Source: a virus. Taken from it: a stretch of DNA of 44,968 nt. The stretch is from positions 1 through 44,968 of the IMG/VR virus record IMGVR_UViG_3300031881_000087; one strand, given 5' to 3'. Positions 14,160 to 44,968 of this stretch are shown here, in pieces. Below the pieces are notes generated by a model that saw nothing but the letters and a program-made list of their open reading frames with translations, did not search any database and was not told the DNA's origin. Each line of letters opens with the position of its first letter. The stretch's first letter is position 1. The translations under genes and the position numbers were made by a program.

Positions 14160-15356
14160 TCACGGGACCAGGTTGGTCGCGCCGCAGATCCCGAACAGGT
14201 TCTGGCAGCTCAGACCCTTCTGGGCCACGAGCATGCCAAGTGCGTAGTCGCCGTCCGTCGAGAGCGGCTTGTACGACAGGCCCTGCATGGTCTGGATCTT
14301 GAACTTCGACGGCATCACCGACAGGATCGTCTCATCGACGTAGACCGTGCCGTTGTTGGCCGCCGAGATCGTGCCACGGAGGTTGTCCGAGGCGGCCTCG
14401 GTCGTCGGCCGGGCGAACGTGGTGTTGTCGTAGACGATCGACGCCCCCTCGATGCCGAGGTAGCGGTCGGGCACCAGGAACAGCGTCCCGTTCGCAGGGG
14501 TCGTGATGACCGTCACGATGTCCTCGATCGCCTGGTCGCGGGCGGGGATCTCGCGCTCGTTGATGACGCCACGGCCCGGCACGAAGTTGAAGTCCGCGAA
14601 GGAGTTCATCATCTTCGGACCGCACATCAGCATCGCGCCATCGCTGTCATGGCCAAGCGTCCAGGCCGGGCCGATGATCTGGTTGTAGAGCAGGTCGCGG
14701 CTGAGTGGGGTGCCACCAGCGTTGTAGAAGCTCGTCCAGTAGGTCTTCTTGATGCCCTGAAGACCATCGCCAACCACGGTCGGGACCGCGCTGGTGGCGT
14801 GGCGCCGCTCGAGGCCGGTCCAGGCCGCCCAGGAGATGAGGCCCTGCGTGCGGGGCTTTGGACCGGCAGGCGTGCCGGCCGCGCCCGTCAGATCCTCGGT
14901 GCCCTGCGAGAAGTGCAGGATGCGCTCCCAGATGTCCATGTGGCGCACCAGGAGGTTGTCGAGGCCGTAGTCGGCGGCATCGGTGACGCCGTACAGCTTG
15001 ATCTGCTGCGACTCGCGTGACACGGCCAGGCCCTCGTGGAAGGTCTGGAGCCGCGTGAACAAGCGATCCGGGTACTTGGCCGCAGCAACCGTGGTCGCCT
15101 GGCCAGCCTGGAGCGCGAAGTTCGTCAGCGTCGTCGCCGATGCGCTGCGGTCGATGTCGTGGTAGTCGATCATCTCGGTCGGCTTGACGGAATCCGTCAT
15201 GGGCTGATCGAAGATCGCATGCATCACGGCAACAGCCGGGTGCATGTTGTTGAGCATGTCGTGAACGGACTCAGCTTCGGCGCCTGCGCCAGAGTTGGCG
15301 AAGCCACCGACGCTGGCGGAGCCAGTGCGAAGGTATTGGTTGGATGGTGCGGTCAT
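14160..15356 (-). CDS. Major capsid protein
   Basis: 398-aa ORF overlapping the scaffold-like gene by 4 nt. Length, composition and position fit an HK97-fold capsid protein. From memory it resembles the SU10/DUF5309-type capsid family. Confidence 0.7.
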   Translation of the reverse strand: MTAPSNQYLRTGSASVGGFANSGAGAEAESVHDMLNNMHPAVAVMHAIFDQPMTDSVKPTEMIDYHDIDRSASATTLTNFALQAGQATTVAAAKYPDRLFTRLQTFHEGLAVSRESQQIKLYGVTDAADYGLDNLLVRHMDIWERILHFSQGTEDLTGAAGTPAGPKPRTQGLISWAAWTGLERRHATSAVPTVVGDGLQGIKKTYWTSFYNAGGTPLSRDLLYNQIIGPAWTLGHDSDGAMLMCGPKMMNSFADFNFVPGRGVINEREIPARDQAIEDIVTVITTPANGTLFLVPDRYLGIEGASIVYDNTTFARPTTEAASDNLRGTISAANNGTVYVDETILSVMPSKFKIQTMQGLSYKPLSTDGDYALGMLVAQKGLSCQNLFGICGATNLVP

Positions 15357-16210: not shown

Positions 16211-16578
16211 GGGTTCTCCTGAACTTGGTTGCGGAATAGACCTGCATCTTGCATCTCTTCCACCGTCTTTTGCAAGCCCCTTGCCTCTGCTTCCAGGGCA
16301 GCAAGAAGCGCAGGATTGGCGCTGTTGACCGCTCGTAGCGTCGAGAGGGTCTGAATGACGCCTCGCTCGAAGCTAACGTCACAGTCCATGTTTGTGGCCA
16401 GGATCTCCAGGTGCGAGGCCCGGTGACGCTCGATGGTTTCCCGGTACATCTTCCAGCCCTCGTCCTCCGCAAGGCGGATCGCAACCTTGACGTGTGCGAT
16501 CTGGAGGAGTTTGTCAGCCAGGATCAATCGAGGATCGCGGCGGACCTGGCGTCGCGTGTCAACTTCCATTGTTGGCAT
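16207..16578 (-). CDS. Hypothetical protein between portal and scaffold
   Basis: 123-aa ORF packed between the portal and the small basic gene. Confidence 0.5.
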   Translation of the reverse strand: MPTMEVDTRRQVRRDPRLILADKLLQIAHVKVAIRLAEDEGWKMYRETIERHRASHLEILATNMDCDVSFERGVIQTLSTLRAVNSANPALLAALEAEARGLQKTVEEMQDAGLFRNQVQENP

Positions 16579-18790
16579 CCGTGATCGGCCCCTGACGACC
16601 GGACTTGGCTACCTGCTGATTGGTGCCGTCGCCGTTGGTTTTCCTGGTGCCGCGCTCGAGTCCACCAGCCGGAGGAGCCTCCTGTGCAGCGGGCCCCTTG
16701 GCAAGCGCCTGCATAGCCGCCTGCCTCTCCATGGCCTTCTGCTGTGCAGCCTTGCGCATCTTCTGTTCGTGGTGACCCTTGTAGTGCTCGAACGCCGCCT
16801 TGCGGGCTGGCTCTGGATTGTTCTCGTCCTCGACAAAGGCGCGGATCCCATCCTCTTCCATGATCGCAAGGTGCGCGTCATCGTCGTCGAGCGGATGGAC
16901 TGGAACGCGCTGGCCAACAACCAGTTTGCGGTTCTCGAGGCGCTGGTCTGACATCGAGTCGAAGTCCTGCGGATCACGTAGGATCTCGTCCTCGCTGTCC
17001 TCACCGACCACGGCCTGATAGACCTGCTTGGTCAGCTCGGCCATGTTGAACATCTGCGGGTTCTCCTGGATCATCGGACCCATGACCTGGAGGAAGGTCA
17101 GCAGGTTGGTGCCACGCAGGCCGTATGCCTGAATCCGCGTCACGCCGTAGAACGTGAAGTCCACCGGACCAAGCAGCTCGCTCGGGCTCATGGTGTACTC
17201 GTTCGTCCCGAGCAGCTTCGCCCAGCGCGTGTTGAGCACGCGGAACTTGGTCTTGTCGGTCATGAACTGCTGATTGTTCGCGTGCATGATCATCAGCAGC
17301 GATGTCATGCCGTCGTCAACCGAGCGGATCAGGCCGAGCAGCCGGCGGTTGCTTTCTTCGATCTTGCGGCGGACTTCCGTGGCTGTGCTGTCACCGCCGG
17401 CACCGCTCTCGCTTCCTTGCCACAGGCGCGTGACGCCAGTGATCTCCTCCATGTCACGCCGCATGATGGAGTCCATGAACGGCGCCGCGCCGAAGGTGTT
17501 TGGCACCGGGGCGAACGCGATCTCGCCAACGTCCTTGCCGATCCAGCCAGGCGGCATGTCGAACATGCTGTTGGGTAGATCGACGGCTGGACCCTTGGTG
17601 AATGCACGCGGCCCGATCGTCAGGTCCGCTGCCTCGTAGAGCGTGCCGCGGAAATGGTCGATCTCGTCCTGCACGCGGAGCGCTGGGTCGTAAAGGCCAA
17701 CGTCGAAGAACTCGAATCCGTTGTCGGAGTAGCGAGCGACGGCATATGGCAGGTGCTTGTCGTCGTGGAAGTTCTCCTGGAGTCGTAGCACGACGCTGTT
17801 GTCATAGACGGTGATGACCGTCTTGCGCATGTCAGCGGGCTGCCCCATCGGAGCCCAATTGAACCAACACCACAGCTCGCCAAGCTCGCCAAACTGCGAG
17901 GTGCCCTTGGGCGTCTTCGAGTCCTCTGCGGTTGAGTTCTTGAGGCCGGACCTGGCCGCCGATGACTGTCGAGCGCGGATGTTGTTCTGCGCATCGGTCG
18001 AAGTGCGCTCAAGTAGCTTGTCGCGGTTCTTGTAGCGATCGTCGTCGATGATCTCGTGCAGTGGCGTGTCACGGATGTCGCCGATGTAGGCCAGGTCTTG
18101 CAAGTCCCACCGTTGCGCGTCCAGGATCAAGCGCGCCGGATCGACGAGGCGAATGCGGTTGCCGACGAAGGTGCATACGTCACGCCATTGGCGCTTGTGG
18201 ACCTCGACCGTCTTTCCATCCTTCACCACCGTTTCGATCCAGTGGTATGGGATGCGCTCCTTCTTGACCTCCCAGGTCACCTTCCAGCAGCCGACTTGGT
18301 ACTTGCAGATCGAGCTAACGAACGGCGCCATCAGCGTGCGGAAGCGGTTCTGGTCGAGCTGGAAGCTCAACTGTGCTGTCAGCGCCGTGTCGCGCATGCG
18401 GTCCATCCTGTCACGGCCCTTGGCCGCGAAGAATGACTGCCCGTTGCCGAAGAACGCCTCGACGATACGGGGGACGAGGGCGCGGTGAGCCTTCAGCAGC
18501 TCTGGGACGTGGACATCGCGGTTGCTGTTCTTGCGCAGCGAGTTGGCTCGAAACAGGTAGTCGATCCACAACCAGTTGTCACGGATGTTGGCTGTGTCGT
18601 TCTCCCACGTCGTCTTGGCGTCGAGGTAGAGTTGCAAAGCCCTGCCGGCCAGCTCCTCGTCATCGGCGAAGTTCTCGTATGGAACCTGCTGATCCTCCAG
18701 AACGTCAGCCTCGGCCGCGGTCAGGTCGGGCCATGCCTCGACATCAATGACCGTTTCGGTGACCGCCCCGCCGTCTGGAAGTGGCTTCAT
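16559..18790 (-). CDS. Portal (head-tail connector) protein
   Basis: 743-aa ORF upstream of the scaffold and capsid genes. Size and position are typical of podovirus portals. Confidence 0.7.
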   Translation of the reverse strand: MKPLPDGGAVTETVIDVEAWPDLTAAEADVLEDQQVPYENFADDEELAGRALQLYLDAKTTWENDTANIRDNWLWIDYLFRANSLRKNSNRDVHVPELLKAHRALVPRIVEAFFGNGQSFFAAKGRDRMDRMRDTALTAQLSFQLDQNRFRTLMAPFVSSICKYQVGCWKVTWEVKKERIPYHWIETVVKDGKTVEVHKRQWRDVCTFVGNRIRLVDPARLILDAQRWDLQDLAYIGDIRDTPLHEIIDDDRYKNRDKLLERTSTDAQNNIRARQSSAARSGLKNSTAEDSKTPKGTSQFGELGELWCWFNWAPMGQPADMRKTVITVYDNSVVLRLQENFHDDKHLPYAVARYSDNGFEFFDVGLYDPALRVQDEIDHFRGTLYEAADLTIGPRAFTKGPAVDLPNSMFDMPPGWIGKDVGEIAFAPVPNTFGAAPFMDSIMRRDMEEITGVTRLWQGSESGAGGDSTATEVRRKIEESNRRLLGLIRSVDDGMTSLLMIMHANNQQFMTDKTKFRVLNTRWAKLLGTNEYTMSPSELLGPVDFTFYGVTRIQAYGLRGTNLLTFLQVMGPMIQENPQMFNMAELTKQVYQAVVGEDSEDEILRDPQDFDSMSDQRLENRKLVVGQRVPVHPLDDDDAHLAIMEEDGIRAFVEDENNPEPARKAAFEHYKGHHEQKMRKAAQQKAMERQAAMQALAKGPAAQEAPPAGGLERGTRKTNGDGTNQQVAKSGRQGPITDANNGS

Positions 18791-21402: not shown

Positions 21403-23079
21403 TTAGCCGGGTGGTCTGCCAAGGGCCCTGATCCAATCCTGACGCGCCGTGACACGACTGTCAATCCAGGGTTCGGTGATCTGGTCGTGCCGGAACTTCG
21501 GGATCCGCATTCCGCCCATCTGGGTTTGGGGCCGGCGAACGTAGCAGGCCGGCGACTTGTCGTGGAAGTAGTGCTCCACGTCGGCGAGCGCATCGGCGAT
21601 GTCCTTCATCGCGTAGTACGGAAACTGCGCGAACTGCTCCACCAGCTCGCCGCCGGGAAGTCGCTGCTGCGTGTTGGTGTCGAGGAATCCGGTTGGATCC
21701 CACAGCGACTTCAGACGTTGGCCGTCGCGGTAGGTGCGCGGGAATGTGTCCACCACATAGAGATCCTTCGCGCGCATCTTCGGCTGTAGGCGTCGGATGC
21801 GATCATCCTTGCTGCGCTCACCACCGCCTCGAGGGATCTCTCGAATGTTCAGTCTCACGCCGCGGCGACGGGCCTCCGTCTCGATCCAACCTTGCAGCAT
21901 CATGGCCATGGTCACGCGCTCGATCGTCCAGCCGGTCATCATCGTCAAGGCCGACCACTTGTGATGCAGCGAGAATAGCTCGTCTACGTACTGCCCTGGC
22001 TCGACTTTACCGACGAAGGCATCCAACAGGTACATCCGTCGCGCGGCATCGAGCCCTACCACCAGCGCCACCGAGTAGCAGGCGCCCTGCGCCTTGCTGA
22101 GGGCTGAGTCCGTGACGATCCAGGTCGTCAGATTCGCCATCTCGGGTTCCCACGGGATCGGCTGGAACCACTCGCGCTTGAAGGTCTGTGACAGCCCTGA
22201 CACATGGCGATTCAGGTACTGCGAGCAGAACTCCTCGAAGTCCATGCCACCGAGCTGCTGCTCGAGGTACGCCTTGGTGAGGTGCGGGAACATCGGCTTC
22301 TCGCCGGTCAACTTGAACAGGCCGTCCGATCCTTCAGCGATCTCGAAGCCAGTGCCCATGACGAGCTTGTTCCATCCCGGCAAGCTGTCGATGTACGAGT
22401 AGACATCGCCGGGGTTGTAGCGCGTCCCTGTCACGATGATCTTGGCGCCTGGCACGCGCAGCGGCATGACCAGGTGAATCAGCATCTTGGCCAGGTCAAG
22501 CTGGGCCTGAGTGCGGCAGTTGCGCCAGTCGATGATGTCGTCGAGGTAGATCCGGTTGTAGTGGCCGCCGGTCGGCAGCCGCTTCAGCGAGCCGATGCGG
22601 AAACTAGGATCTGCCCGCGAAGCGTCGTTCCTGGTCGAGAGCGTCCACTCATCGACAGTCCACGGGTACCCCTTCAGCGGCTGGCCAAACCATGCCTCGA
22701 TGTTGGGGTTGAACTCGAACGTGTCACGGATCGAGATCGACCATTTGCGCACCTGCGCTGTGGTCCCCGACATGAACAACGTCGCATCATCAGGGTGTGC
22801 GAGGAAGTTGCGTACGCAGTCGGCCTTGACCGTGGACGACTTCAGGCCGCCGCGCGGCGCCAGGAGCATGCATAGCTGCTTGTCGGGGTCGGCGACAAAC
22901 TCGGTCATCGTGGTGTATGGAGGCTCGTCGCGGAGCCCGCCAGTGCCAACGTTGATCTTCTTCCCGGTCTTGTGATCCAGGTCGTAGTTGTAGCCAAGCA
23001 GCTCGCGCCCAACGAACCCTGTATCCGTCATCGCGCGAGCGACCCACTTCTCCAGCTCTTTCTCGGACAGCTCGATCAC
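21403..23079 (-). CDS. terL: Terminase large subunit
   Basis: 558 aa with a Walker A-like LLAPRGGLKSS and a Walker B-like RIYLDDII. The C-terminal half is nuclease-like and the gene lies at the head of the virion arm. Confidence 0.85.
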   Translation of the reverse strand: MIELSEKELEKWVARAMTDTGFVGRELLGYNYDLDHKTGKKINVGTGGLRDEPPYTTMTEFVADPDKQLCMLLAPRGGLKSSTVKADCVRNFLAHPDDATLFMSGTTAQVRKWSISIRDTFEFNPNIEAWFGQPLKGYPWTVDEWTLSTRNDASRADPSFRIGSLKRLPTGGHYNRIYLDDIIDWRNCRTQAQLDLAKMLIHLVMPLRVPGAKIIVTGTRYNPGDVYSYIDSLPGWNKLVMGTGFEIAEGSDGLFKLTGEKPMFPHLTKAYLEQQLGGMDFEEFCSQYLNRHVSGLSQTFKREWFQPIPWEPEMANLTTWIVTDSALSKAQGACYSVALVVGLDAARRMYLLDAFVGKVEPGQYVDELFSLHHKWSALTMMTGWTIERVTMAMMLQGWIETEARRRGVRLNIREIPRGGGERSKDDRIRRLQPKMRAKDLYVVDTFPRTYRDGQRLKSLWDPTGFLDTNTQQRLPGGELVEQFAQFPYYAMKDIADALADVEHYFHDKSPACYVRRPQTQMGGMRIPKFRHDQITEPWIDSRVTARQDWIRALGRPPG

Positions 23080-24542: not shown

Positions 24543-24773
24543 CTACTCGCCCTCGGGCGAGTCACACGCGAGCGCCGCGTTGGCGCGCATGCGGACATCC
24601 TCGAGCGCGGTCAGCGCCAGCGAGTGGTTGCGGCCCTCGGGCATGATCTCGTTCAGCTCCCGCGCCAGCTCGAGGCAGAGAGCTGACACGCGGGCATGCT
24701 TGGCGTTCCGCGAGGGCGGGCCGGAGTGGTAGAGGAATCGGTTCTGGAGATCGGCGTCAGTTGGCTTCGGCAT
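24543..24773 (-). CDS. Small conserved-looking helical protein (76 aa), leftward
   Basis: The start was trimmed to MPKPTDADLQNRFLYH, which has AAGGA 7 nt upstream. The pattern F.YH.P...H..V.....LA.....P.GR..SLA.T.LE...M.AN resembles a widespread small phage/actinobacterial family whose name I cannot recall. Confidence 0.5.
   Translation of the reverse strand: MPKPTDADLQNRFLYHSGPPSRNAKHARVSALCLELARELNEIMPEGRNHSLALTALEDVRMRANAALACDSPEGE
24545..24562. terminator. Candidate bidirectional hairpin at convergent stops (stem actcgcc/ggcgagt, loop ctcg)
   Basis: Read directly. It sits just inside the 3' end of the minus-strand CDS (24543..24773), immediately after the plus-strand stop TGA at 24540-24542. 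It has no U-tract. Confidence 0.3.
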
Positions 24774-24948: not shown

Positions 24949-25024
24949 TGGAAGCGGGGGCTGGGATCGAACCAGCGGCCTCTGGATTATGAGTCCAGCG
25001 TTCTGCCAACTGAACTACCCCGCA
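24949..25024 (-). tRNA. tRNA with CAU anticodon (Met, or Ile2 if lysidine-modified), CCA encoded
   Basis: Hand-folded cloverleaf: D arm GUUC-AGUUGGCA-GAAC, anticodon arm CUGGA-CUCAUAA-UCCAG, T arm GCUGG-UUCGAUC-CCAGC, acceptor GCGGGG/CCCCGC. Position 1:72 comes out as U-U in my fold. Confidence 0.8.
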
Positions 25025-25051
25025 GTGCGTCGCTGGCTAGGCTACCGCGCC

Positions 25052-25468
25052 ATGACGATCGACGCCAGCGACCACACGCAGTTTCTGGCCATGCGCGTCT
25101 ACCAGGCCCACAAGAACTGGCAGCCCAACGGCAACCTCGGCCTCGAGGAGTGGGTCGCCCTGGCCGAGAGCAACGCCGAGCAGGAGTGGGCCCGCCACAT
25201 TCGCCGCGAGAAGCGCCGCCGGCGCCGCACCGAGCCTCTGGACCTCGTGCTCCCCGAGCCATCGACGCCGCCAGACCGCAGCGTCGAACTCCTCGAACAA
25301 GTCGCCAGCCTGCTACAGCGCCTGACCGAAAAGGAGCTGGAGGTGTTCCTCGCCGTGTGCCTCGACCGACAGCCCCTAACAGCCGCCGCGGCGCAGCTCG
25401 GCATCACACGGGAGGCCGTAAAGCAGCGCCTTCACGACGGTCGGCAGCGGCTTCCACCGTGCCAATGA
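25052..25468 (+). CDS. Small ECF-sigma-like protein (region-4 HTH with a short degenerate region-2-like N-terminus)
   Basis: LTEKELEVFLAVCLDRQPLTAAAAQLGITREAVKQRLHDGRQRL is a typical sigma-70 region 4.2 HTH. W.ALAESNAEQEWARHIRREKRR resembles the end of region 2. The start was trimmed to the Met at 25052 so that it no longer overlaps the tRNA. Confidence 0.6.
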   Translation: MTIDASDHTQFLAMRVYQAHKNWQPNGNLGLEEWVALAESNAEQEWARHIRREKRRRRRTEPLDLVLPEPSTPPDRSVELLEQVASLLQRLTEKELEVFLAVCLDRQPLTAAAAQLGITREAVKQRLHDGRQRLPPCQ

Positions 25469-26646: not shown

Positions 26647-26868
26647 CGGGGGGGCGCCGAGACGGCGAGGATACTTTCGGGGCAAGGGGCGCGCCGGCCG
26701 GCCGTCGGCGAAGAAAGGACTGTCGGGCAAGCGCTTGGCTAGCATGGCGTTAGGGGCGGTCGTGGAAATTGTGTCACGTGGGTATTGCATTGTGGACGAT
26801 ACACAGTAGCGTTCCTGGTGGGGGGCGAGCATCTTCGCCCGGCCCCCCGAACCACAGCAGAGCACAGC

Positions 26869-28005
26869 ATGACAGAACAAACCACCATGGCAGAGCGGTT
26901 GGCGACGGCCAGCATGCAGCGCGTTCTATACCCGATGGCCCGGCGGCTCGGGATCCCCGGATACGTTGAAAAGCGCAAGGGTGACCTTGTGGCGGCGCTA
27001 CTGGCGCATCCCGACTGTCAGGAAGCGTACGATGCCGAAACCGGGGCAAGCGCTCATCCGGCGCCTGTCACGGAATCGCCCGGTGACGACGAGGTAGCGC
27101 GGGCGCTTCGCACGATCCTTGCCGCGCGCGCGCCGCGGTCGGCGCCGGTCGATGAAACGGCCGTTCGCTTGATCGCCGAGGAAGTCGTCCGCGCGGCGAT
27201 GGAAGGCGCGGCCGTTTCTGTCACGGTCAATGACGCCAGGACGGAAAGGTCCGTTTCCGTAGGCGCGCAACACGCCAGGTTCCCCCTTCTGTTGAAGGTA
27301 TGCGATACCTTTGTCGATGGAAAGCGCATGGTGCCTTGGCTTGGCGGTCCGCCAGGAACGGGCAAGACAACGGCCGCGCGGTCCGTGGCGAAAGCGCTCG
27401 ACCTGTCTTTCGCCTTCACTGGCGCCCTAGACTCACCTTACGCCCTGTCAGGCTTCATCGACGCGGGGGGGCGAACGGTCCGAACCGCATTCCGGGAAGC
27501 CTGGGAGAACGGGGGCGTATTCCTTTTCGACGAAATAGACGCTTCGCATGCATCGGCCGTTGTCGCCTTCAATGCGGCGCTGGCGAACGGCGTATGCGCG
27601 TTCCCGGACGGCATGGTCGAACGGCACCCTGACAACGTTTGTATCGCTGCCGCGAACACGTTCGGGCAAGGGGGCAATGCGAACCTCGCGGGGCGTGTGC
27701 GGCAAGACGGCGCCTTCCTTGATCGGTTCGCAATGATCCATTGGAACATCGACCCCGCCCTAGAATCGGCAATCTGCCCGGACAAGCGCTGGCTACGCAC
27801 AGTCCGCGCTACTCGCAAGGCCGCGACCGATCGTTCTGTGACAGGCGCGACAATCACTCCGCGCGCATCCGTCAAGGGGGCGGCGCTACTGGCAAACGGG
27901 GTCGCCTTTGATGATGTATGCGAGATGGCGCTACGTTGTGGGCTCCCTGACGCGTCCTGGGAACCGCTTCTGTCGGTCGCGCGTTCGGCATGGGGGGAGT
28001 CCTAA
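26869..28005 (+). CDS. AAA+ ATPase, MoxR/CobS (AAA_5)-like, with an N-terminal Rho_N/SAP-like motif
   Basis: Walker A GGPPGTGKTT, Walker B VFLFDEID, AANTFG, AFLDRF. The N-terminal LYPMARRLGIPGYVEKRKGDLVAALLAH resembles the Rho N-terminal helix-hairpin motif. The start was trimmed to MTEQTT. Confidence 0.75.
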   Translation: MTEQTTMAERLATASMQRVLYPMARRLGIPGYVEKRKGDLVAALLAHPDCQEAYDAETGASAHPAPVTESPGDDEVARALRTILAARAPRSAPVDETAVRLIAEEVVRAAMEGAAVSVTVNDARTERSVSVGAQHARFPLLLKVCDTFVDGKRMVPWLGGPPGTGKTTAARSVAKALDLSFAFTGALDSPYALSGFIDAGGRTVRTAFREAWENGGVFLFDEIDASHASAVVAFNAALANGVCAFPDGMVERHPDNVCIAAANTFGQGGNANLAGRVRQDGAFLDRFAMIHWNIDPALESAICPDKRWLRTVRATRKAATDRSVTGATITPRASVKGAALLANGVAFDDVCEMALRCGLPDASWEPLLSVARSAWGES

Positions 28006-32198: not shown

Positions 32199-33182
32199 AT
32201 GACACGAAAGCATCTGATCGGCGGCACCGACGCCGCCACCCTGCTCGGCGTTGGCCGAGAGTCCCGACTCCACCTCTACATGCGGCTGCGCGGTGAGATC
32301 CCCAACGAGGAGCCCGACAACGAGGACGCGCTCAAGGCCGGCAAGCTGGCTGAGGATGGACTGATCCGCCCGTTGGTCGAGGATCTGATCGACACGAACG
32401 GCGAGGGTGCGCTCGTTCGCGCGGCCCCGGTGCCACTGCAAGTCGACCCGCGGATCGGCGTCTCGCCGGACTTCTACGCGAGCAACGGCCGCGATGTGGA
32501 AGCGAAGCTGACAGGCTCCCGGCTGCTGTGGGGCACGCACGAGTCTCGACAGGTTCCGCTGCACGTCTACCTGCAAGTGCAGTTCCAGTATGCGGTGCCC
32601 CGTGACAACGGGATGCCGCGTCACGCCATCGACGTGTGGACGATGTTCCTGCCGAGCTACGACCTGTGCCGATACCCGATCCCCGAGGACATCGAAGTCG
32701 GGAAGAAGCTGATTGAGGCCGCGCACGAGATGCTGCGCCGTGTCGATGCAGGACTGGAACCCGAGGCGACCAACGAGGAGGACGCGCGGGCGAAGTTCCT
32801 TGCCTACAACGAGGAGCCGATCGAACTCAGCGCAGAGCAGCAAGCCAGCGTGAAGCGCATCGGCGAGCTGTCACGAATCATGCGGGAGGCCAAGGCCGAG
32901 AGTGACGATCTGCGCAACCAGCTCTTGCCACAGCTCGGCAATGCCTCGGTGTTGATCGGTGCCGGCGGCGAAGTCGTGGCGACGTGGCGAGCCAACCGCG
33001 TGTTCGACGAGGTTGCGTTCGCGCGTAAGCACCCGGACATCCTCGCCCAATACACCGTTCCGAAGCTCGACATGGCGGCTGTCAGGAAGCATCACAAGAA
33101 GGCCGTCGAAGCCTGCATGGTGATGCCTACGCACCCAAGCGAGCAAACCCGCGTATTCAAGGTGAAGGGGGGTGATGACTGA
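32199..33182 (+). CDS. YqaJ-type (lambda Exo-like) recombination exonuclease
   Basis: It has the N-terminal IGGTDAATLLG motif and PD-(D/E)xK-like SPD...EAK, and lies immediately upstream of recT. Confidence 0.7.
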   Translation: MTRKHLIGGTDAATLLGVGRESRLHLYMRLRGEIPNEEPDNEDALKAGKLAEDGLIRPLVEDLIDTNGEGALVRAAPVPLQVDPRIGVSPDFYASNGRDVEAKLTGSRLLWGTHESRQVPLHVYLQVQFQYAVPRDNGMPRHAIDVWTMFLPSYDLCRYPIPEDIEVGKKLIEAAHEMLRRVDAGLEPEATNEEDARAKFLAYNEEPIELSAEQQASVKRIGELSRIMREAKAESDDLRNQLLPQLGNASVLIGAGGEVVATWRANRVFDEVAFARKHPDILAQYTVPKLDMAAVRKHHKKAVEACMVMPTHPSEQTRVFKVKGGDD

Positions 33183-33325: not shown

Positions 33326-34324
33326 ATGGCACTGCAAGTCACAATCTCAGACGCGAAGGGGCTCATTGCCCGCGAGTCGAAGCGTTTCCAGGCTGCGCTC
33401 GAAAGCGATCCGGCCGCCGGGCGCATCCGCCCGATCTCCTACGGCCCTTGGTACGCCGCGGCAATCGCCGACTTCGAGCGCCAGCCCGGCTTGATCGAGG
33501 CGTGTGTGCAGGCCCCTGACACGGTGATCGACGCCCTGTCAGTGGCCGCCAACTGTGGCCTGGTGCCAGGCAGCGCGCACGGCCAGTTCTACCTCATCCC
33601 TCGGTGGAACTCGAAGCGCCAGAGCATGACGGCCACGTTCATCATCGGCTACAAGGGCATGATCGACATGGCCTATCGGCACCCGCGCGTCCACAAATGC
33701 GAGGGATTCTTGGTCTACGAGGGCGAGCCCTTCGAGTGGGAACCCGGCGCCGGCAAGCTGATGCACAAGTGGTCGCCGCATGTCACGCGCGGCGAGGACA
33801 AGGTAGTCGCCGCGTACTCGAGGGTCGTGCTCACCGTGGCCAACGGCACGACGGTCGATCAGGAACCGCTCGTGTCGGTGATGACGCGCGACGAGATCCT
33901 GGCCGTGCGTGACAGGTCGGATGCGTGGAAGGCGTTCACCGCTGGCAAGATCAAGTCTACTCCGTGGAGCACTGACCCGTTGCCGATGATGCGCAAGACG
34001 GTGATCCGCGCGCACTTCAATGGCGGCTCAATCCCGCGATCGGCTGACCTGATGCTTGGCATCCAAGCCGAGCAGGATCAGGAGGAGCGGATGTCGCAAG
34101 CCGAGTTCTCGTCGGCGGCCACTGCTGTCACGACGACAGCGGCAACAGCCAGGGCGGCGGCCGGCCTAGCCGCGCTGCCTGACACGTCGTCGATGCTGCC
34201 TGAGCAGATCATCGCTTGGGTGGACACCGCTTCATCGGACCAACTTCACTCGATCGACCTGTCAGCGTTCCACGGCGAGGACCGCAAGCGCATCGAGATC
34301 GCCATCGAGGAGCGGCTGTCGTGA
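33326..34324 (+). CDS. recT: RecT-family single-strand annealing protein
   Basis: 332 aa. CGLVPGS..GQFYLIPR....IIGYKGMIDMA is the typical RecT core. It is paired with a YqaJ exonuclease. Confidence 0.75.
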   Translation: MALQVTISDAKGLIARESKRFQAALESDPAAGRIRPISYGPWYAAAIADFERQPGLIEACVQAPDTVIDALSVAANCGLVPGSAHGQFYLIPRWNSKRQSMTATFIIGYKGMIDMAYRHPRVHKCEGFLVYEGEPFEWEPGAGKLMHKWSPHVTRGEDKVVAAYSRVVLTVANGTTVDQEPLVSVMTRDEILAVRDRSDAWKAFTAGKIKSTPWSTDPLPMMRKTVIRAHFNGGSIPRSADLMLGIQAEQDQEERMSQAEFSSAATAVTTTAATARAAAGLAALPDTSSMLPEQIIAWVDTASSDQLHSIDLSAFHGEDRKRIEIAIEERLS

Positions 34325-34761
34325 GCGAGCAACTGAACATCGCCGAGCTGCGGAGGCTCGCTTCCGTAATCCGGGAACCACGCCACGGCATCGGGTGCAT
34401 CGCATCCGACTGCGCGCTGGCATCCGAAGCCCGCAACGCCCTCCCCGCGCTGCTGGACGCCGCCGATGAACGCGACGCGCTCAGGACCGAGATTGAGGCG
34501 GCGAAACTGATCCTGCCGGTCTGCTGCGGGAGCCTCGCCGATGCGGCCGACACGCTACGGCAGGAGCGCGACGCGCTCAAGGCGAAGCTGGCGGCACTGG
34601 CGTCCGCTTGCTCTACGTGGCAGGAGTGGGGAGGCCACTGCGATACGTGCGAGTTCGTTCGGCAACGAGACGCGAACCTGGCCCTCGACACTGCCCTGTT
34701 CGCCGACTACTGCGACTGCGGATGGTACGCTACGAGGAAGGCCCTCGACGTGAAAGTCTGA
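34321..34761 (+). CDS. Ead/Ea22-like protein, paralog A (shares its C-terminal module with 39921..40421)
   Basis: GTGA overlap start. It has an N-terminal AELRRLA motif and the C-terminal DALKAKLAALASACSTWQEWGGHCDTCEFVRQR module, encoded by a 100-bp exact repeat. Confidence 0.55.
   Translation: MSEQLNIAELRRLASVIREPRHGIGCIASDCALASEARNALPALLDAADERDALRTEIEAAKLILPVCCGSLADAADTLRQERDALKAKLAALASACSTWQEWGGHCDTCEFVRQRDANLALDTALFADYCDCGWYATRKALDVKV
34568..34667 (+). repeat. 100-bp exact direct repeat, copy 1 (copy 2 at 40219-40318)
   Basis: Base-by-base comparison. About 80 nt of diverged similarity follows each copy. Confidence 0.9.
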
Positions 34762-35127: not shown

Positions 35128-35165
35128 CACGAGGCCGACATTCGTTTCCGAATGTCGGCCTCGTG
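35128..35165 (+). terminator. Perfect 17-bp hairpin (cacgaggccgacattcg-tttc-cgaatgtcggcctcgtg)
   Basis: Read directly. It lies 59 nt after the upstream stop and has no U-tract. The SD GGAGAGG (35166-35172) and the ATG at 35180 follow immediately. Confidence 0.5.
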
Positions 35166-35179
35166 GGAGAGGTAGAACC

Positions 35180-35774
35180 ATGCTGCAAAGCGAGTCGAAC
35201 ACTACAAGGCGCAAGGGTGGAAGGCAAGCCCGCGATCCTTCGTTCCCGATCTACCCCCGGCGATTTACTGGTCGATCCGCGCATCGCCTGCCTATCGGCC
35301 ACCGAGCTGGGCGTCCACTTCAAGATGCTCCTGTTCGCGTGGATGAACCCGCTGCCCGCTGACCTGGCCCTGGTGCAGCAGATGGCCGGCGGCGAGATGA
35401 CTCCGCGTGTCCGCACGCTCTGGAGGATCGTCGATGGCTACCTACAGAACGACTACCTCGAAGGCGTGAGAGCTGACAGGGAGGCATTCCGAGCCGAGCA
35501 GAAACGCAAGTCGGACCGTGCCCACGGGAAGCCCGCGGGCAGTCCACGGGCACCATCCGGGCAACCAACGGGCGTCCCGCGGGCTGCCCTTCCGTTTCCC
35601 TCTCCTTCTCCGTCTCCGTTTCCATTGATGGATGCAAGCATGCAAGAGGTTTCTGTACCAGGAAAGAACCACGGCGGTAGCCCTGCCAGTACCCAGGAGG
35701 CCATCGCTCAGATCCTCGTAAACGCCAAGCCTAGCCACGATCAGGCAGGGGGGGCTACCGATGGTAACCCTTGA
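35180..35774 (+). CDS. DUF1376-like (replication/recombination-associated) protein, reading frame broken at a C5 run (35254-35258)
   Basis: The ATG at 35180 has a good SD and encodes MLQSE...RDPSFPIYP in one frame. GDLLVDPRIACLSATELGVHFKMLLFAWMNPLPAD continues in the +1 frame. Joined, the two match the DUF1376 signature fPfY.gD.l.d...LS.ee.G.Y..LL...W. Confidence 0.6.
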
Positions 35775-36357
35775 AGAGATCGTCGAAGCGCTGGCCAGCT
35801 ACGCCATCCACGAAGGATTCCCGAAGGAACGTCGCCAGCTCGCCGGCCAACTGCTCGCCGAAGGGGTGGATTCCGGCGCCGTCGAGGCCATCGGCAAGTT
35901 CTGCTTCCGAACCGTGCGCGACGGGAATCCTGCCGCTGTGGCAAACTGGCTGCTGATTGATCCGGTCAGGCGCAAAGACTGCCTCGATGACATCGGGTTC
36001 TGCGCCGACGCCGCCGCCGCCAAGCAGGCCGATGCCGTTGTGTCAAAGAGCTTGACGCCGAGTGAGGTCGCAACCCTCAGCAAGGGAGAGCCAACCGAGG
36101 AATGGTTGCAGAACCGAAACCTCTGCATCGCCTTCGCCCGAGTCGTGACAGAGCGGGCTCCTGTGAAGGTCGTCGCCGAGGAGCTGGGGCTGACCGAGAA
36201 GCAGGTTGCCGCATTGGTGAAGCAGGAGCGCGCTCGGCGCGGTGTCGATGCGGCGGCGCGCGGACACAAGGCGACAGCACTCGACGACGAGAAGGCCAGC
36301 GAGGAGCGGCGCAAGACCTGGCTCGCGGACATGCGGGCGAAGCGGGTGCCGCGGTGA
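35761..36357 (+). CDS. Hypothetical protein (198 aa) with a possible C-terminal HTH
   Basis: ORF overlapping the upstream gene by 14 nt. VAEELGLTEKQVAALVKQERAR is HTH-like. Confidence 0.5.
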   Translation: MVTLEEIVEALASYAIHEGFPKERRQLAGQLLAEGVDSGAVEAIGKFCFRTVRDGNPAAVANWLLIDPVRRKDCLDDIGFCADAAAAKQADAVVSKSLTPSEVATLSKGEPTEEWLQNRNLCIAFARVVTERAPVKVVAEELGLTEKQVAALVKQERARRGVDAAARGHKATALDDEKASEERRKTWLADMRAKRVPR

Positions 36358-36566
36358 ACCTCCGCGCATCACGAAGCAGCGGCGGCGAAAACATCATCCT
36401 GGCCGGCGGCCCGCTCGATGGCAGCCTGATCGAGATCCCCACCTACATACAGCAGAGGGAGTTCGTAGACATCCCGCTCGACGCCGCCGCAAAGGGGCTC
36501 GGCCTACCCATCCCTGAAATGCTCAACCCTCCACGCCTTTACCTGTTTGTTCCAAAGCCAGCATGA
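36354..36566 (+). CDS. Hypothetical protein (70 aa), GTG start
   Basis: GTGA coupling to the upstream gene. Confidence 0.4.
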   Translation: MNLRASRSSGGENIILAGGPLDGSLIEIPTYIQQREFVDIPLDAAAKGLGLPIPEMLNPPRLYLFVPKPA

Positions 36567-36814
36567 ACAACGACGAACTATCCGAAGTGGTCAACCGCCA
36601 CCTGACCATGCTGCGCGAGCATTTCGATGCAGTCCACATCGTTGCAACGCGCGAGGTGGAAGGCGACCAAGAATCGCGTGTCACGTTCTCGATGGGCAAG
36701 GGCTCGATCTACGAGCGCCTTGGGGCGATGCGCGACTACGTGCTAAAGCAGGACGAGAGGACACGCATTCAGGCTGGCCGTGAAGACCGCGACGAAGAAG
36801 AAGGAGCCCTATGA
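36563..36814 (+). CDS. Hypothetical acidic protein (83 aa)
   Basis: ATGA coupling at both ends. It lies directly upstream of the chaperonin, which is a co-chaperonin position, but I saw no GroES motifs. Confidence 0.5.
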   Translation: MNNDELSEVVNRHLTMLREHFDAVHIVATREVEGDQESRVTFSMGKGSIYERLGAMRDYVLKQDERTRIQAGREDRDEEEGAL

Positions 36815-37743
36815 CACCACGCAACATCACTCACAGCACGAAGGCCCGCGACGCCCTCGTCCGCGGCGCCAACACATTGGCCCGTGCAGTCGGCGCAACA
36901 CTCGGCCCGTCTGGCCGCATCGTCCTGATCGACGATCGGTTCGGCAGGGTCGTTGCCACCAAGGACGGCGTGACAGTGGCGAAGGCGGTCCACCTTCCCA
37001 GCCAAGAGGAGCAGATGGGGGCGAGCCTGCTGCGCGACGCCGCGATCAAGGTTGCCGAGACGTGCGGCGATGGCACGACGACGTGTGTTGTCATGGCGGC
37101 GAAGCTGCTGGAGGAGGCGACGAAGCTGGTGCTCGGCGGCGCCGACCTGGTGAAGCTCGTCCGCGAGATCGAGGACGCCGCCGGCTGCGCCGAGAACCTG
37201 ATCATGTCCCGCAGCCAGCCGGCGATCGGCGTGGGCTGGGACCAGAAGATCGCCAACGTGTCTGGCAACCATGACCCGCGTGTCACGCAGTCGGTTGCGC
37301 TGGCCTTCGACCACGTTGGCGCGAACGGCTCCATCTCGATCCGTGACGGCAACACCGACCGCATCGAGGTAGACCGGCAGGAGGGGTTCCGCATCGAGCG
37401 TGGCCACTTCGCCGCCGGCCTGACACCGGAGTCCGGGCTCATCGAGTTGGAAGATGCTCTCGTCCTGATCACCAACCGCACGCTGACAAGTGGCGTTGAG
37501 CTGATCCCGATCCTCCAGTCCTCCGCTGCCGCAAACCTGTCGCTGCTGATCGTCTGCGATGGCCTGGTGGGTGAAGCACTCGAGACTGTGACAGGGAATC
37601 ACCGGGCTGGATCTATCCGCGTCGCCGCCGTGCGCGCGCCGGGCTTCGAGGACCGCCAGTGGGACATGCTCCACGACCTTGCCGTGTGGTGTGACGCCGA
37701 AGTGCAGGACATCGCACAGGCAGGCTCGATGCGGCCAAACTAG
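36811..37743 (+). CDS. groEL: GroEL-like chaperonin (Cpn60), N-terminal about 300 residues
   Basis: ARDALVRGANTLARAVGATLGPSGR, TKDGVTVAK, GDGTTTCVVMA and VRAPGFEDRQWDMLHDLA align residue-for-residue with the GroEL equatorial, intermediate and apical regions. The frame ends at TAG 37741-37743. Confidence 0.8.
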   Translation: MTPRNITHSTKARDALVRGANTLARAVGATLGPSGRIVLIDDRFGRVVATKDGVTVAKAVHLPSQEEQMGASLLRDAAIKVAETCGDGTTTCVVMAAKLLEEATKLVLGGADLVKLVREIEDAAGCAENLIMSRSQPAIGVGWDQKIANVSGNHDPRVTQSVALAFDHVGANGSISIRDGNTDRIEVDRQEGFRIERGHFAAGLTPESGLIELEDALVLITNRTLTSGVELIPILQSSAAANLSLLIVCDGLVGEALETVTGNHRAGSIRVAAVRAPGFEDRQWDMLHDLAVWCDAEVQDIAQAGSMRPN

Positions 37744-38354
37744 GCGCCGTCGCCAACGTGACGCAGGACCGCAGCCGAACCATCCTGCGCAACCCGATCG
37801 GCCAGAACGTCCCGGCGCTCACGTCACGCATCAAGAACCTGGAGTCAGTTCGTGACACAACCTCGAACGAGTACGACCTCGACAAGGCAATCGAGCGCAT
37901 CGGCCGGCTGCGCGGTCGCGTCGTCGAGATCCGTGTCGGTGCAGCAACCGAGACAGAGGCGCGCGAGATCAAGGACCGCATCGAGGACGCGCTGCATGCC
38001 GTTCGCATCGCGCACCGTGACGGCGTGCAGCCGGGCGGCGGGACGGCGCTGCTGCGCGCGGCACACTGGCTTGAGATGAAGCAGACCCTCGGAGCGCAGG
38101 CTGTCAGGACCGCGCTGCGCGAGCCTGCCGCCAAGATCGCCAGGAACGCCGGGACTCCTGAGCATCTGGCTCCGATGACTGTTGCCATCGACCTGAGCTG
38201 GAACACCGGCTGCACGGCTGACGGCGAACCCGTGGACATGATGCAGTTTCCAGATCCGACAGCCGTGGTGGTTGGCGCACTTCGCGCCGCCGTCTCGGTT
38301 GTCACGACGTTGCTGCTCGCGGAGACGAGCATCACAATCGAGGAGAGCCGATGA
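37695..38354 (+). CDS. groEL: GroEL-like chaperonin, C-terminal about 205 residues in the -1 frame
   Basis: This frame is open from 37695. KLGAVANVTQDRSRTIL, EYDLDKAIERIGRLRGRVVEIRVGAATETE, DALHAVRIA..GVQPGGG and DPTAVV align with GroEL residues from about 320 to 525. The first start codon in this frame (GTG 37758) has no SD. Confidence 0.75.
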   Translation, partial: RRSAGHRTGRLDAAKLGAVANVTQDRSRTILRNPIGQNVPALTSRIKNLESVRDTTSNEYDLDKAIERIGRLRGRVVEIRVGAATETEAREIKDRIEDALHAVRIAHRDGVQPGGGTALLRAAHWLEMKQTLGAQAVRTALREPAAKIARNAGTPEHLAPMTVAIDLSWNTGCTADGEPVDMMQFPDPTAVVVGALRAAVSVVTTLLLAETSITIEESR

Positions 38355-38560
38355 CCAAGAAGACCAAGAAGGCGGCGAAGAAGCCGCGTCCCAAGACCGT
38401 GACTAAGACTTACCGTCAGTGGCGCGTCGTAGATTCGTCCTGTGGCGACATCGAGGATCAGGTGTTCCCCGTGCGGGACATGGCGGCGGATTCCGTCGCC
38501 TATCGACCAGCGAGGTTCTGCGCCGCCCGCGTCACCATCACCTACGAGGTGCGCCGATGA
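38351..38560 (+). CDS. Hypothetical Lys-rich protein (69 aa)
   Basis: ATGA coupling to the upstream gene. It ends in ITYEVRR, the same C-terminal peptide and junction as the next gene. Confidence 0.5.
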   Translation: MTKKTKKAAKKPRPKTVTKTYRQWRVVDSSCGDIEDQVFPVRDMAADSVAYRPARFCAARVTITYEVRR

Positions 38561-38664
38561 TCCCGACCCGCGAACAGATCGAGGGAGACTGGGGCGATCC
38601 CCGTTACTCAATGGCCACCGTGGTTCGCACGTGGCTCCGCGCCATGCGCGACGAGATCGACCGG
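38538..38664 (+). repeat. 127-bp exact direct repeat, copy 1 (copy 2 at 39095-39221)
   Basis: Base-by-base comparison with an offset of 557 nt. It spans the end of one gene (TYEVRR stop), the ATGA junction and the first 36 codons of the next gene. Confidence 0.9.
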
Positions 38665-39117
38665 ATCACCGCCGAACTGGCCGCCCTCAAGCCCAGCGAG
38701 GAACCTGTGCGCATGGTGAGCATCCGAGCCTCCACTTTGGAGCAGGTCCGCGACGCGATGACGTGCGCATCGGAGGCCAACTACACCAGCGGAGCAGACA
38801 TGCGAATCAGGTGGGGGTTATCCGAGGGTCGGTGCGTGATCGAGGAGGTGCAGCGACTTTGCTACGCTGCGCTCCATGCTCTTGATTCTGACCCCCAGGA
38901 AGTGACTGAGCCGGTGCGCATGAGTCGTCATGTGCGAGACTGCATCCAGACATCACTGAACTACGCACTCGTGAACACGTCCGCAGTTAGCTATGACGAC
39001 GTGCTTGCTGCGCGGAAGTTCGTGGAGGCGCTTGAGAAGATGCCGGCCCAGCCCGCGCCGGTCGAGCAGCCCGCTGCCGCCGTGCCCGAGACGTTCACCT
39101 ACGAGGTGCGCCGATGA
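38557..39117 (+). CDS. Hypothetical protein, tandem paralog 1 (186 aa)
   Basis: Its first 36 aa (MIPTREQIEGDWGDPRYSMATVVRTWLRAMRDEIDR) are identical to those of 39114..39689. Confidence 0.6.
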   Translation: MIPTREQIEGDWGDPRYSMATVVRTWLRAMRDEIDRITAELAALKPSEEPVRMVSIRASTLEQVRDAMTCASEANYTSGADMRIRWGLSEGRCVIEEVQRLCYAALHALDSDPQEVTEPVRMSRHVRDCIQTSLNYALVNTSAVSYDDVLAARKFVEALEKMPAQPAPVEQPAAAVPETFTYEVRR

Positions 39118-39221
39118 TCCCGACCCGCGAACAGATCGAGGGAGACTGGGGCGATCCCCGTTACTCAATGGCCACCGTGGTTCGCACGTGGCTCCGCGCC
39201 ATGCGCGACGAGATCGACCGG
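39095..39221 (+). repeat. 127-bp exact direct repeat, copy 2
   Basis: See copy 1 at 38538-38664. Confidence 0.9.
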
Positions 39222-39689
39222 CTCACCGCAGCCAACGAAGCGGGTGGTGCCGCGCTCCTGGACGCACAGCGCGAAGCCGCAAAGCTCCGCGCCGAACTGG
39301 CCGCCCTCAAGCCTAGCGAGGACCGCGAGGCGAAGATTCGGGCGTGGGCGGAGGGCGCACTGGCGCACCAGCACGACGACGGATCATTTCCTATGTGGAA
39401 ATACGAGATCGACGACGCCATCGCCCTGATGCGCAGCGCCGGGGATCCCGACGCCAAGCTGCGCGAGCTGCGGGCATGGGTTGTCTCTGACACCAGGTGG
39501 TGGAACCATCCGAAGTGGGCATCCGTGCAGGATGTGTGCAAGCGCATCGACGAGATGCTGGCCCAGCCCGCGCCGGTCGAGCAGCCCGCTGAACCGCCGA
39601 CGATCCACCGCCTCGGCACCGTGCCCGACGACACGCGAGAGCTGGTGGCGCAGTTGGCGGACCTCGTGGCGTGGCCATGCCGACCATGA
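39114..39689 (+). CDS. Hypothetical protein, tandem paralog 2 (191 aa)
   Basis: It shares the N-terminal 36 aa, the AELAALKPSE block and the AQPAPVEQPA block with paralog 1; the middle region differs. Confidence 0.6.
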   Translation: MIPTREQIEGDWGDPRYSMATVVRTWLRAMRDEIDRLTAANEAGGAALLDAQREAAKLRAELAALKPSEDREAKIRAWAEGALAHQHDDGSFPMWKYEIDDAIALMRSAGDPDAKLRELRAWVVSDTRWWNHPKWASVQDVCKRIDEMLAQPAPVEQPAEPPTIHRLGTVPDDTRELVAQLADLVAWPCRP

Positions 39690-39921: not shown

Positions 39922-40421
39922 TGGCCTTCCCCAAAGAGGAGCGCGACGAACTGCGGCGGCTGCACGCTGCGGCGACTGCTGGCGAGTGGCACTACGACGA
40001 TGGCGTAACCGACGGCGAAGGAACTCCTGACGCTGAGCGTGGCAAGGCGGCATGGATCACCGCCAAGGGCAACGTGCTCATTGCAGAGCCGTCCGGATGC
40101 GACCCGAAGGAGCCGTGCGTTCCGTCGCTTGCCGAGATGGACGCCAACGGGAAGTGCATCGTTGCCACGCACAACGCCCTGATCCCGCTCCTCGACGCCC
40201 TGGACGCCGCCGAGGAATGCGACGCGCTCAAGGCGAAGCTGGCGGCACTGGCGTCCGCTTGCTCTACGTGGCAGGAGTGGGGAGGCCACTGCGATACGTG
40301 CGAGTTCGTTCGGCAACGTGCAGCGAACCCGATCCTCGATACGGCCCTATTCGCCGACTACTGCGACTGCGGGTGGCACGCTACAAGGCAGGCCCTCGCC
40401 GCCGCGAAGGTGCAGCCATGA
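39921..40421 (+). CDS. Ead/Ea22-like protein, paralog B
   Basis: DELRRLHAAATAGEWHYDDG resembles the Ea22-type LR.LAEAAT.G.W motif. Its C-terminal module is shared with 34321..34761. Confidence 0.55.
   Translation: MAFPKEERDELRRLHAAATAGEWHYDDGVTDGEGTPDAERGKAAWITAKGNVLIAEPSGCDPKEPCVPSLAEMDANGKCIVATHNALIPLLDALDAAEECDALKAKLAALASACSTWQEWGGHCDTCEFVRQRAANPILDTALFADYCDCGWHATRQALAAAKVQP
40219..40318 (+). repeat. 100-bp exact direct repeat, copy 2
   Basis: See copy 1 at 34568-34667; the offset is 5651 nt. Confidence 0.9.
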
Positions 40422-40936
40422 AGCGCGGCGCCGTTCTCAGTCCGTGCGGCACGTGGCGATACGAACTGCCGCGCGAGTGGGATATCGGCAATCGCCTCGT
40501 GGTGGTAATGCTCAACCCTAGCACGGCCGACGCCGAGAAAGACGATCCCACGATTCGCCGCGTGATCGGGTTCGCGAAGTCGCACGGGTTCGGGAACCTG
40601 CTCGTGCTCAACATCTTCGCGCTTCGGTCGACCGATCCCGATGGGCTCAGGGTTGCGCAAGACCCGGTTGGGCCAGACAACGACGCGCATATCCACGACG
40701 CGCTGTCGATACCAGGCACGCCAGCACTGGCCGCCTGGGGAAGCATGGGCGACCAATGGGATCCAGCGCGCCAACGCGCGGCGGCCGTGCTCAATCTTGC
40801 GCCGCTGGCTAGTTGGTTTTGTCTCGGCACCACCAAAAACGGACACCCACGCCACCCTCTCTACATAGCGGGCTCGACCCGCTTCGCTCCGTATCGCGTA
40901 GAGAGGGGTCTAGCCGCCGCGAAGGTGCAGCCGTGA
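40418..40936 (+). CDS. DUF1643-like protein
   Basis: SPCGTWRYELPREW......VVVMLNPSTADAEKDDPTIRRVIGFAKSHGFG.LLVLNIFALRSTDP matches my memory of the DUF1643 signature. Confidence 0.6.
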   Translation: MKRGAVLSPCGTWRYELPREWDIGNRLVVVMLNPSTADAEKDDPTIRRVIGFAKSHGFGNLLVLNIFALRSTDPDGLRVAQDPVGPDNDAHIHDALSIPGTPALAAWGSMGDQWDPARQRAAAVLNLAPLASWFCLGTTKNGHPRHPLYIAGSTRFAPYRVERGLAAAKVQP

Positions 40937-44826: not shown

Positions 44827-44968
44827 TCAACTAGACCCTTCCACACATCGGCACCGCCAAGGGCTGCCTGCTGCTCGGCCAGGTGCAGACGCCATTCACC
44901 GATGACCTGCACGTGGCCGAGCAGCAGGCAGCCCTTGGCGGTGCCGATGTGTGGAAGGGTCTAGTTGA
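44827..44968. repeat. 142-nt terminal fold-back: a direct copy of nt 1-55 followed by the reverse complement of nt 1-88
   Basis: 44827-44880 and 44915-44968 form 54-bp inverted arms. The arms are extended by aggtgcag/ctgcacgt (one mismatch) around an 18-nt loop. Confidence 0.95.

Follow-up and report, generated by a model that had tools for sequence, protein, structure and literature searches.

The 44,968-nt viral contig IMGVR_UViG_3300031881_000087 (positions 1 to 44,968 of the IMG/VR record; hereafter the window) carries a GroEL-like gene at 36811-38354 on the plus strand, which appears there as two overlapping open reading frames (ORFs). We interpret these ORFs as one gene, predicted from sequence comparison to encode a 514-amino acid (aa) group I (GroEL-type) chaperonin of a phage. 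The interruption is most likely an assembly or sequencing artefact, since over 2.9-4.1 kb the window matches six other contigs without a single substitution and carries two frame-breaking changes in C-run length that are private to this one contig. The first-pass annotation of this DNA had proposed a full-length phage member of the GroEL family split by a -1 frame change, with an indel error, recent pseudogenisation, a two-chain chaperonin or non-canonical recoding as possible causes. Our analysis bears out the family and the position of the break and finds that an indel error fits best.

A GroEL-type gene interrupted by one missing base

The first ORF (ORF1) runs from 36811 to 37743 and encodes 310 aa, and the second frame, open from position 37695, closes with the TGA at 38352-38354, giving an overlap of 49 nt in which both frames are open. 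Codons of ORF1 start at positions equal to 1 modulo 3 and those of the second frame at 0 modulo 3, which amounts to a -1 change, equivalent to one lost base. The first-pass coordinates and frames of both ORFs agree with ours, and the frame change, placed there between 37695 and 37743, can now be assigned at the level of the base to 37714/37715. The 5′ part of the gene (36811-37714, plus strand) extends from the ATG at 36811 to the lost base and comprises codons 1-301 and the first base of codon 302 of the 514-aa protein; it encodes the equatorial segment at the N terminus, followed by the intermediate domain and the greater part of the apical domain. Downstream of the deletion, ribosomes in the shifted frame would add 8 wrong residues (QAGSMRPN) before reaching a premature TAG at 37741-37743 (plus strand). 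The 3′ part (37715-38354, plus strand, -1 frame) corresponds to residues 303-514; its product completes the apical domain and continues through the intermediate domain into the C-terminal equatorial segment, with EDALHA (containing the equivalent of Asp398), GGG and the DP motif.

We compared the window with contigs retrieved through exact matches to the 83-aa protein encoded just upstream, to RecT, and to the terminase. Where the window reads ATCG-CACAGG around the one-base deletion (37714-37715, plus strand), eleven other contigs that span the site (L001, L005-L013 and L028) read ATCGCCACAGG, in which GCC ACA encodes Ala-Thr. A single C is thus absent from the window, which has GCACA where its relatives have GCCACA, and the deleted allele is found on one of the twelve contigs spanning the break. 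The extra base at window position 37715 is also present in L017, together with an intact 514-aa gene. Inserting a C at 37714/37715 of the window restores a 514-aa protein identical to P0122, an intact protein recorded on four other contigs. Additionally, a database search with the fused protein returned P0001, which is 98% identical and is encoded by a single ORF of 514 aa; the DNA encoding it (L001) differs from the window by a single insertion or deletion (indel) in 1.9 kb, at this same position. More distant relatives (P0002-P0011, 46-51% identity) are likewise single ORFs, the whole set including P0001 ranging from 502 to 522 aa. The break is therefore private to the window contig among these orthologs, a comparison that the first-pass annotation had proposed.

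Several other look-ups gave no match. Exact-pattern scans that accepted either allele found nothing in IMG/VR, Joint Genome Institute (JGI) metagenome contigs or GTDB genomes, in collections that do not hold the window's own record. When the 310-aa ORF1 was looked up as an exact called gene, nothing matched, and a cluster look-up places it on one 44,968-bp JGI/IMG contig only. Sample accessions searched in the literature gave no indication of the environment. A megablast search of 36500-38600 against GenBank phages found no match. L015, a 45.3-kb relative in ENA with 79-97% identity, ends before the break and is uninformative on the GroEL site.

Both pieces of the gene match the Pfam family Cpn60_TCP1 (PF00118). 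The N-terminal piece covers profile positions 1-108 (E 1.7e-20, 73.7 bits) and the C-terminal piece covers positions 328-482 (E 2e-16, 60.2 bits), while P0122, the repaired protein, reaches 129 bits (gathering cut-off 34.3) and spans positions 1-482 of 490. Residues 5-509 of the joined protein align to GroEL chains of E. coli and Thermus in the PDB with E values of 2e-84 to 1e-77, and P0001 matches PHROG 5725 ('chaperonin groEL') with E 6e-93. These end-to-end matches bear out the original family call. The repaired protein passes the NCBIfam GroEL subfamily model NF009487 narrowly (358.9 versus a cut-off of 352 bits) and falls below the cut-off of the NCBIfam GroEL equivalog TIGR02348 (347 versus 582.1 bits).

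Conserved residues, the co-chaperonin question and proposed function

The residues discussed here follow E. coli numbering, from an alignment to an E. coli GroEL reference sequence that is consistent in length and motifs. The ATP and Mg site is present throughout P0122: TLGP 30-33, K51, D52, D87 and GTTT up to position 91, D398, GGG 414-416, and D495 are all found, and nearly all of them are conserved clade-wide in P0001-P0011. In GroEL, a groove in the apical domain (Y199, Y203, F204, L234, L237, L259, V263 and V264) binds both substrate and the mobile loop of GroES. This groove is changed across the clade, with Y199 replaced by W, H or F, Y203 by A, G or others, F204 by L or M, and V264 by G or Q. 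L234, L237 and L259 are retained or conservatively replaced in most clade members, and two have Q at 259. Residues that make inter-ring contacts are variable across the clade. The chain also stops right after the equatorial domain, without the Gly/Met-rich C-terminal tail that forms the GGM repeats of E. coli GroEL.

We searched for a Cpn10 co-chaperonin gene by tblastn with GroES and T4 gp31, and with a Cpn10 hidden Markov model (HMM) built from four sequences and run on all six-frame ORFs. No Cpn10 gene was found in the window or in the contigs of three more distant relatives (L002-L004) with either tblastn or the home-made HMM, the best E being 0.09. The first-pass annotation had noted that the acidic 83-aa gene immediately upstream occupies the position of a co-chaperonin. 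This gene (36563-36814, plus strand) is an orphan (ORFan) whose TGA overlaps the GroEL ATG in the sequence ATGA, and because of this stop-start overlap the two genes are probably translationally coupled. Its product gave no hit, to Cpn10 or otherwise, in Pfam (E up to 0.1), PHROGs or NCBIfam, and falls into two clusters only among 5.8 billion proteins. No homologue is present at the L002-L004 loci, where the gene upstream of GroEL encodes 654, 155 and 145 aa, respectively. AlphaFold2 models the 83-aa protein as a helix, a beta-hairpin and a long helix, not a beta-barrel, with low confidence (predicted local distance difference test, pLDDT, 60; predicted template modelling score, pTM, 0.30). 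The lack of a Cpn10 match, the restriction to one lineage and the absence from the GroEL locus of relatives with about 50% identity all argue against a co-chaperonin role for this gene.

On the other side of the chaperonin gene, the ATG of a gene for a basic 69-aa protein (38351-38560, plus strand) overlaps the GroEL stop, again as ATGA. The protein has no family match in Pfam or NCBIfam, and the gene is kept downstream of GroEL in near-identical contigs only. Just upstream of the 83-aa gene we also observed a variable gene slot (36354-36566, plus strand), which holds a 70-aa gene in the window and in most identical contigs. The slot has no called gene in L001, L011 and L012, about 138 bp being absent from L001, and the equivalent slot has a 90-aa gene in L009 and a 97-aa gene in L017.

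From the conserved residues, the protein would bind and hydrolyse ATP as GroEL does, and its ring oligomers would help to fold phage proteins. The obvious candidate for a client would be the SU10-type major capsid protein of the same phage. The changed apical groove, the missing tail and the absence of a detectable Cpn10 gene together suggest that the chaperonin would act either without a lid, as gp146 of phage EL does, or with GroES of the host.

Origin of the interruption

Six contigs from at least 5 samples (L005-L008, L010 and L013) have 0 mismatches to the window over 2.9-4.1 kb and differ from it by exactly two 1-nt gaps, the GroEL deletion and a second private one-base indel at 35254-35258 (plus strand), where the window has C5 and twelve other contigs have C4, as does L015 at 35254. 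Both gaps alter the length of a C run and both disrupt a reading frame. The additional C shifts a 197-aa gene (35180-35774, plus strand) just past its ATG at 35180, which is preceded by a Shine-Dalgarno sequence. For this region of the window the ORF caller instead gives a 203-aa ORF with a GTG start (35163-35774). The absence of any substitution beside two private frame-breaking changes of this kind argues for an artefact. A sibling contig points in the same direction: L028 (JGI sample 3300000833) is otherwise identical to L005 and carries an extra A at window position 37530, a private 1-nt insertion that cuts the same GroEL gene short at 254 aa. Indels of this sporadic kind seem to be a recurring feature of these JGI assemblies.

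The affected segment lies between two 189-nt repeats (34562-34750 and 40213-40401), and other assemblies stop there, their contigs ending at 34562-34638 and around 38560-38664. Since these assemblies break at the repeats, the assembler that produced the window had to bridge or merge at this point. We propose that the missing C arose in the assembly or consensus calling of this hard-to-assemble, repeat-bounded segment. The phage population would then make its chaperonin as one chain, and the split would not be biological.

Alternatively, the deletion could be real, in which case a sub-lineage of an otherwise clonal population has acquired recent frameshifts in both GroEL and the 197-aa gene that lies 2.5 kb upstream of it, and the GroEL allele is a fresh pseudogene or a minority allele picked up by the assembler. 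Some of our observations favor this account and weigh against an artefact. Over the 23 kb that can be compared at window positions 11403-34597, the window is 99.9-100% identical to other assemblies with zero indels, so the contig is not generally error-prone; the two indels within 2.5 kb form a non-random cluster that lies in the accessory region; and the loss of one C from CC differs from the classic error in long homopolymers. De Bruijn assemblers as a rule build on k-mers that the reads contain, and C runs, in which both changes lie, are also sites of replication slippage. On the functional side of our reading, ATPase activity, ring assembly, clients and lid independence are predictions from residue conservation. 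Against a real deletion stand the lack of accompanying substitutions relative to six other contigs, the presence of the allele on just one of twelve spanning contigs, the private indel with which L028 breaks the frame of the same gene, suggesting a technical source, and the flanking repeats that break assemblies. We therefore regard a real deletion as unlikely. Slightly less likely again is the reading in which both indels are genuine and have only just knocked out the chaperonin and the 197-aa gene, which would make the phage GroEL dispensable or counter-selected in some host or condition. Independently of how the indels arose, the intact clade may represent a viral chaperonin that is lid-independent, tail-less and confined to small phages with SU10-type capsids.

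The remaining explanations retain the split as functional. Programmed -1 ribosomal frameshifting or another form of recoding could fuse the two frames into a 514-aa product within their 49-nt overlap, and a near-slippery G CCA AAC precedes the stop, at which a -1 slip would yield a 514-aa chain with 7 residues substituted. The first-pass annotation had reported no canonical slippery site, and we agree: no X XXY YYZ heptamer occurs in frame in ORF1 or in any frame of the 49-nt overlap. Alleles that match the window at all other positions keep the frame, relatives near and far are all single ORFs, and there is no conservation of the sort that selection would maintain at a shift site, which makes recoding very improbable; the near-slippery sequence could provide occasional rescue at most. 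A two-chain chaperonin would pair the 310-aa N-terminal chain non-covalently with a 198-aa chain started at GTG 37758. Both ORFs are long and the GTG is present, but this arrangement occurs in no relative, the split form is on one contig only, and the cut falls inside the apical domain with loss of the conserved residues 303-316 of the intact protein, so that we give this design almost no weight. Since the relatives are uniformly encoded by one ORF each (502-522 aa), we regard both programmed recoding and a two-chain design as effectively excluded. Of the four causes originally listed, an indel error fits best. Not upholding a split or recoded chaperonin spares follow-up work on a likely artefact, and flags a second broken gene in the contig.

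Phage genome, chaperonin clade and known chaperonins

The window is a phage genome, whole or near-complete, of about 45 kb. It encodes a large terminase subunit (21403-23079), an SU10-type portal (16559-18790) and the SU10-type major capsid protein (14160-15356), all on the minus strand, as well as RecE-like (32199-33182) and RecT-like (33326-34324) genes, and the chaperonin gene is part of an early or accessory operon. Between the structural and early modules are genes for a 76-aa protein with an Acb2/Tad1 hairpin domain of the anti-CBASS/Thoeris sponge family (about 24543-24773, minus strand) and a 159-aa sigma-70 region 4 protein (about 24989-25468, plus strand), both mapped from the 99.99%-identical contig L018. 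An AAA/AAA_5 ATPase (26785-28005, plus strand), labelled 'porphyrin biosynthesis' in PHROGs (phrog_249), is a 406-aa ORF with a TTG start in the window versus 378 aa as called in relatives, and a 294-aa protein (40052-40936, plus strand) has a DUF1643 domain (E 5e-39).

The two copies of the 189-nt repeat are 92% identical and form one of two direct-repeat pairs. The other (38521-38672 and 39078-39229, 95% identity) lies in tandem paralogous genes (about 38557-39117 and 39114-39689) whose N-termini are nearly identical (MIPTREQIEGDWGDPRYSM...), and short-read contigs of the same phage end at both pairs. At the end of the contig, bases 1-62 recur at 44827-44888 with 98% identity, consistent with a circular assembly. 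Within 44827-44968, this repeat is followed by the reverse complement of bases 1-80, giving a 62-nt inverted repeat around an 18-nt loop. The contig end looks less like a real terminus than like a circular overlap joined to a fold-back artefact of assembly.

The clade of P0001-P0011 is found in metagenome assemblies only, with no member in NCBI. A neighbour-joining tree shows it as a monophyletic group at the end of a long branch. Within the clade, identity is 44-74%, and between the clade and cellular GroELs it is 32-38%, compared with 59-99% among the cellular GroELs sampled. The G+C content at third codon positions (GC3) of the GroEL gene is 82%, versus 81-88% for the terminase, portal, capsid and RecT genes. 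Recent transfer from a host was considered and rejected, as no cellular GroEL is more than 38% identical and GC3 fits the other phage genes. The gene is thus best read as an old gene of a phage lineage and not a recent host capture, which answers the choice between host-derived and phage-lineage origin that the first-pass annotation had posed. The contigs on which relatives lie (L002, from a 47-kb contig; L003, from 32.6 kb; and L004, 11.8 kb) look like phage DNA, with one small gene following another, and L003 also carries YqaJ, RecT, HNH and Acb2/Tad1-hairpin genes.

What remains after the split is set aside is a deep, metagenome-only clade of GroEL-type proteins in phages of about 45 kb, the longest contigs of relatives being 32.6 and 47 kb. 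Viral GroELs themselves are well documented, and the gene found here is a divergent addition to them. The clade is further evidence that phages other than the giant ones encode chaperonins, and it would be a compact candidate for studying a lid-free mode of viral chaperonin action and the identity of the phage proteins that are folded.

Compared with bacterial GroEL/Cpn60 (PF00118, NF009487, TIGR02348; 1AON), the phage protein is collinear over its whole length, with the same order of three domains and the same nucleotide-binding and catalytic residues. It differs in its 32-38% identity, altered apical residues, missing tail and variable inter-ring contacts, in having no groES partner gene that we could find in the window, and in not reaching the TIGR02348 cut-off.

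Among viruses, GroELs are common in viromes, and in one of their clades the contigs carry no GroES (Marine et al. 2017, PMC5649160). About 260 records of the GenBank phage collection have a match to the phage GroEL query, and GroELs are encoded by 60-kb Flavobacterium podoviruses (vB_FspP_elemo), the 72.5-kb Cellulophaga phage phi38:1 and the 42.9-kb Caudoviricetes sp. MW202497. With these genomes and the virome survey (PMC5649160) in view, the earlier remark that a chaperonin is unexpected in a genome of about 45 kb was overstated. These viral GroELs (PHROG 5725, the 'GroEL-only' clade of Marine et al., elemo, phi38:1 and MW202497) resemble ours in being full-length, in belonging to small or medium tailed phages and in having no adjacent GroES; in contrast, none of the GroELs in the GenBank phage collection is more than 35.5% identical to P0122.

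The chaperonins of giant phages (gp146 of Pseudomonas phage EL, gp246 of OBP and gp228 of AR9) work without a co-chaperonin (PMC7185714, PMC9598537), and lid-free action has been shown for EL gp146 (PMC7185714). They share with P0122 that they are phage-encoded, and their co-chaperonin-free mode may offer a functional analogy. The relationship in sequence is more distant: P0122 matches EL gp146 (PDB 6TMT) in two stretches with E 7e-22, with 23.7% identity over 78% of the query, versus about 1e-78 for E. coli GroEL, and the giant phages have genomes of more than 200 kb as against 45 kb here.

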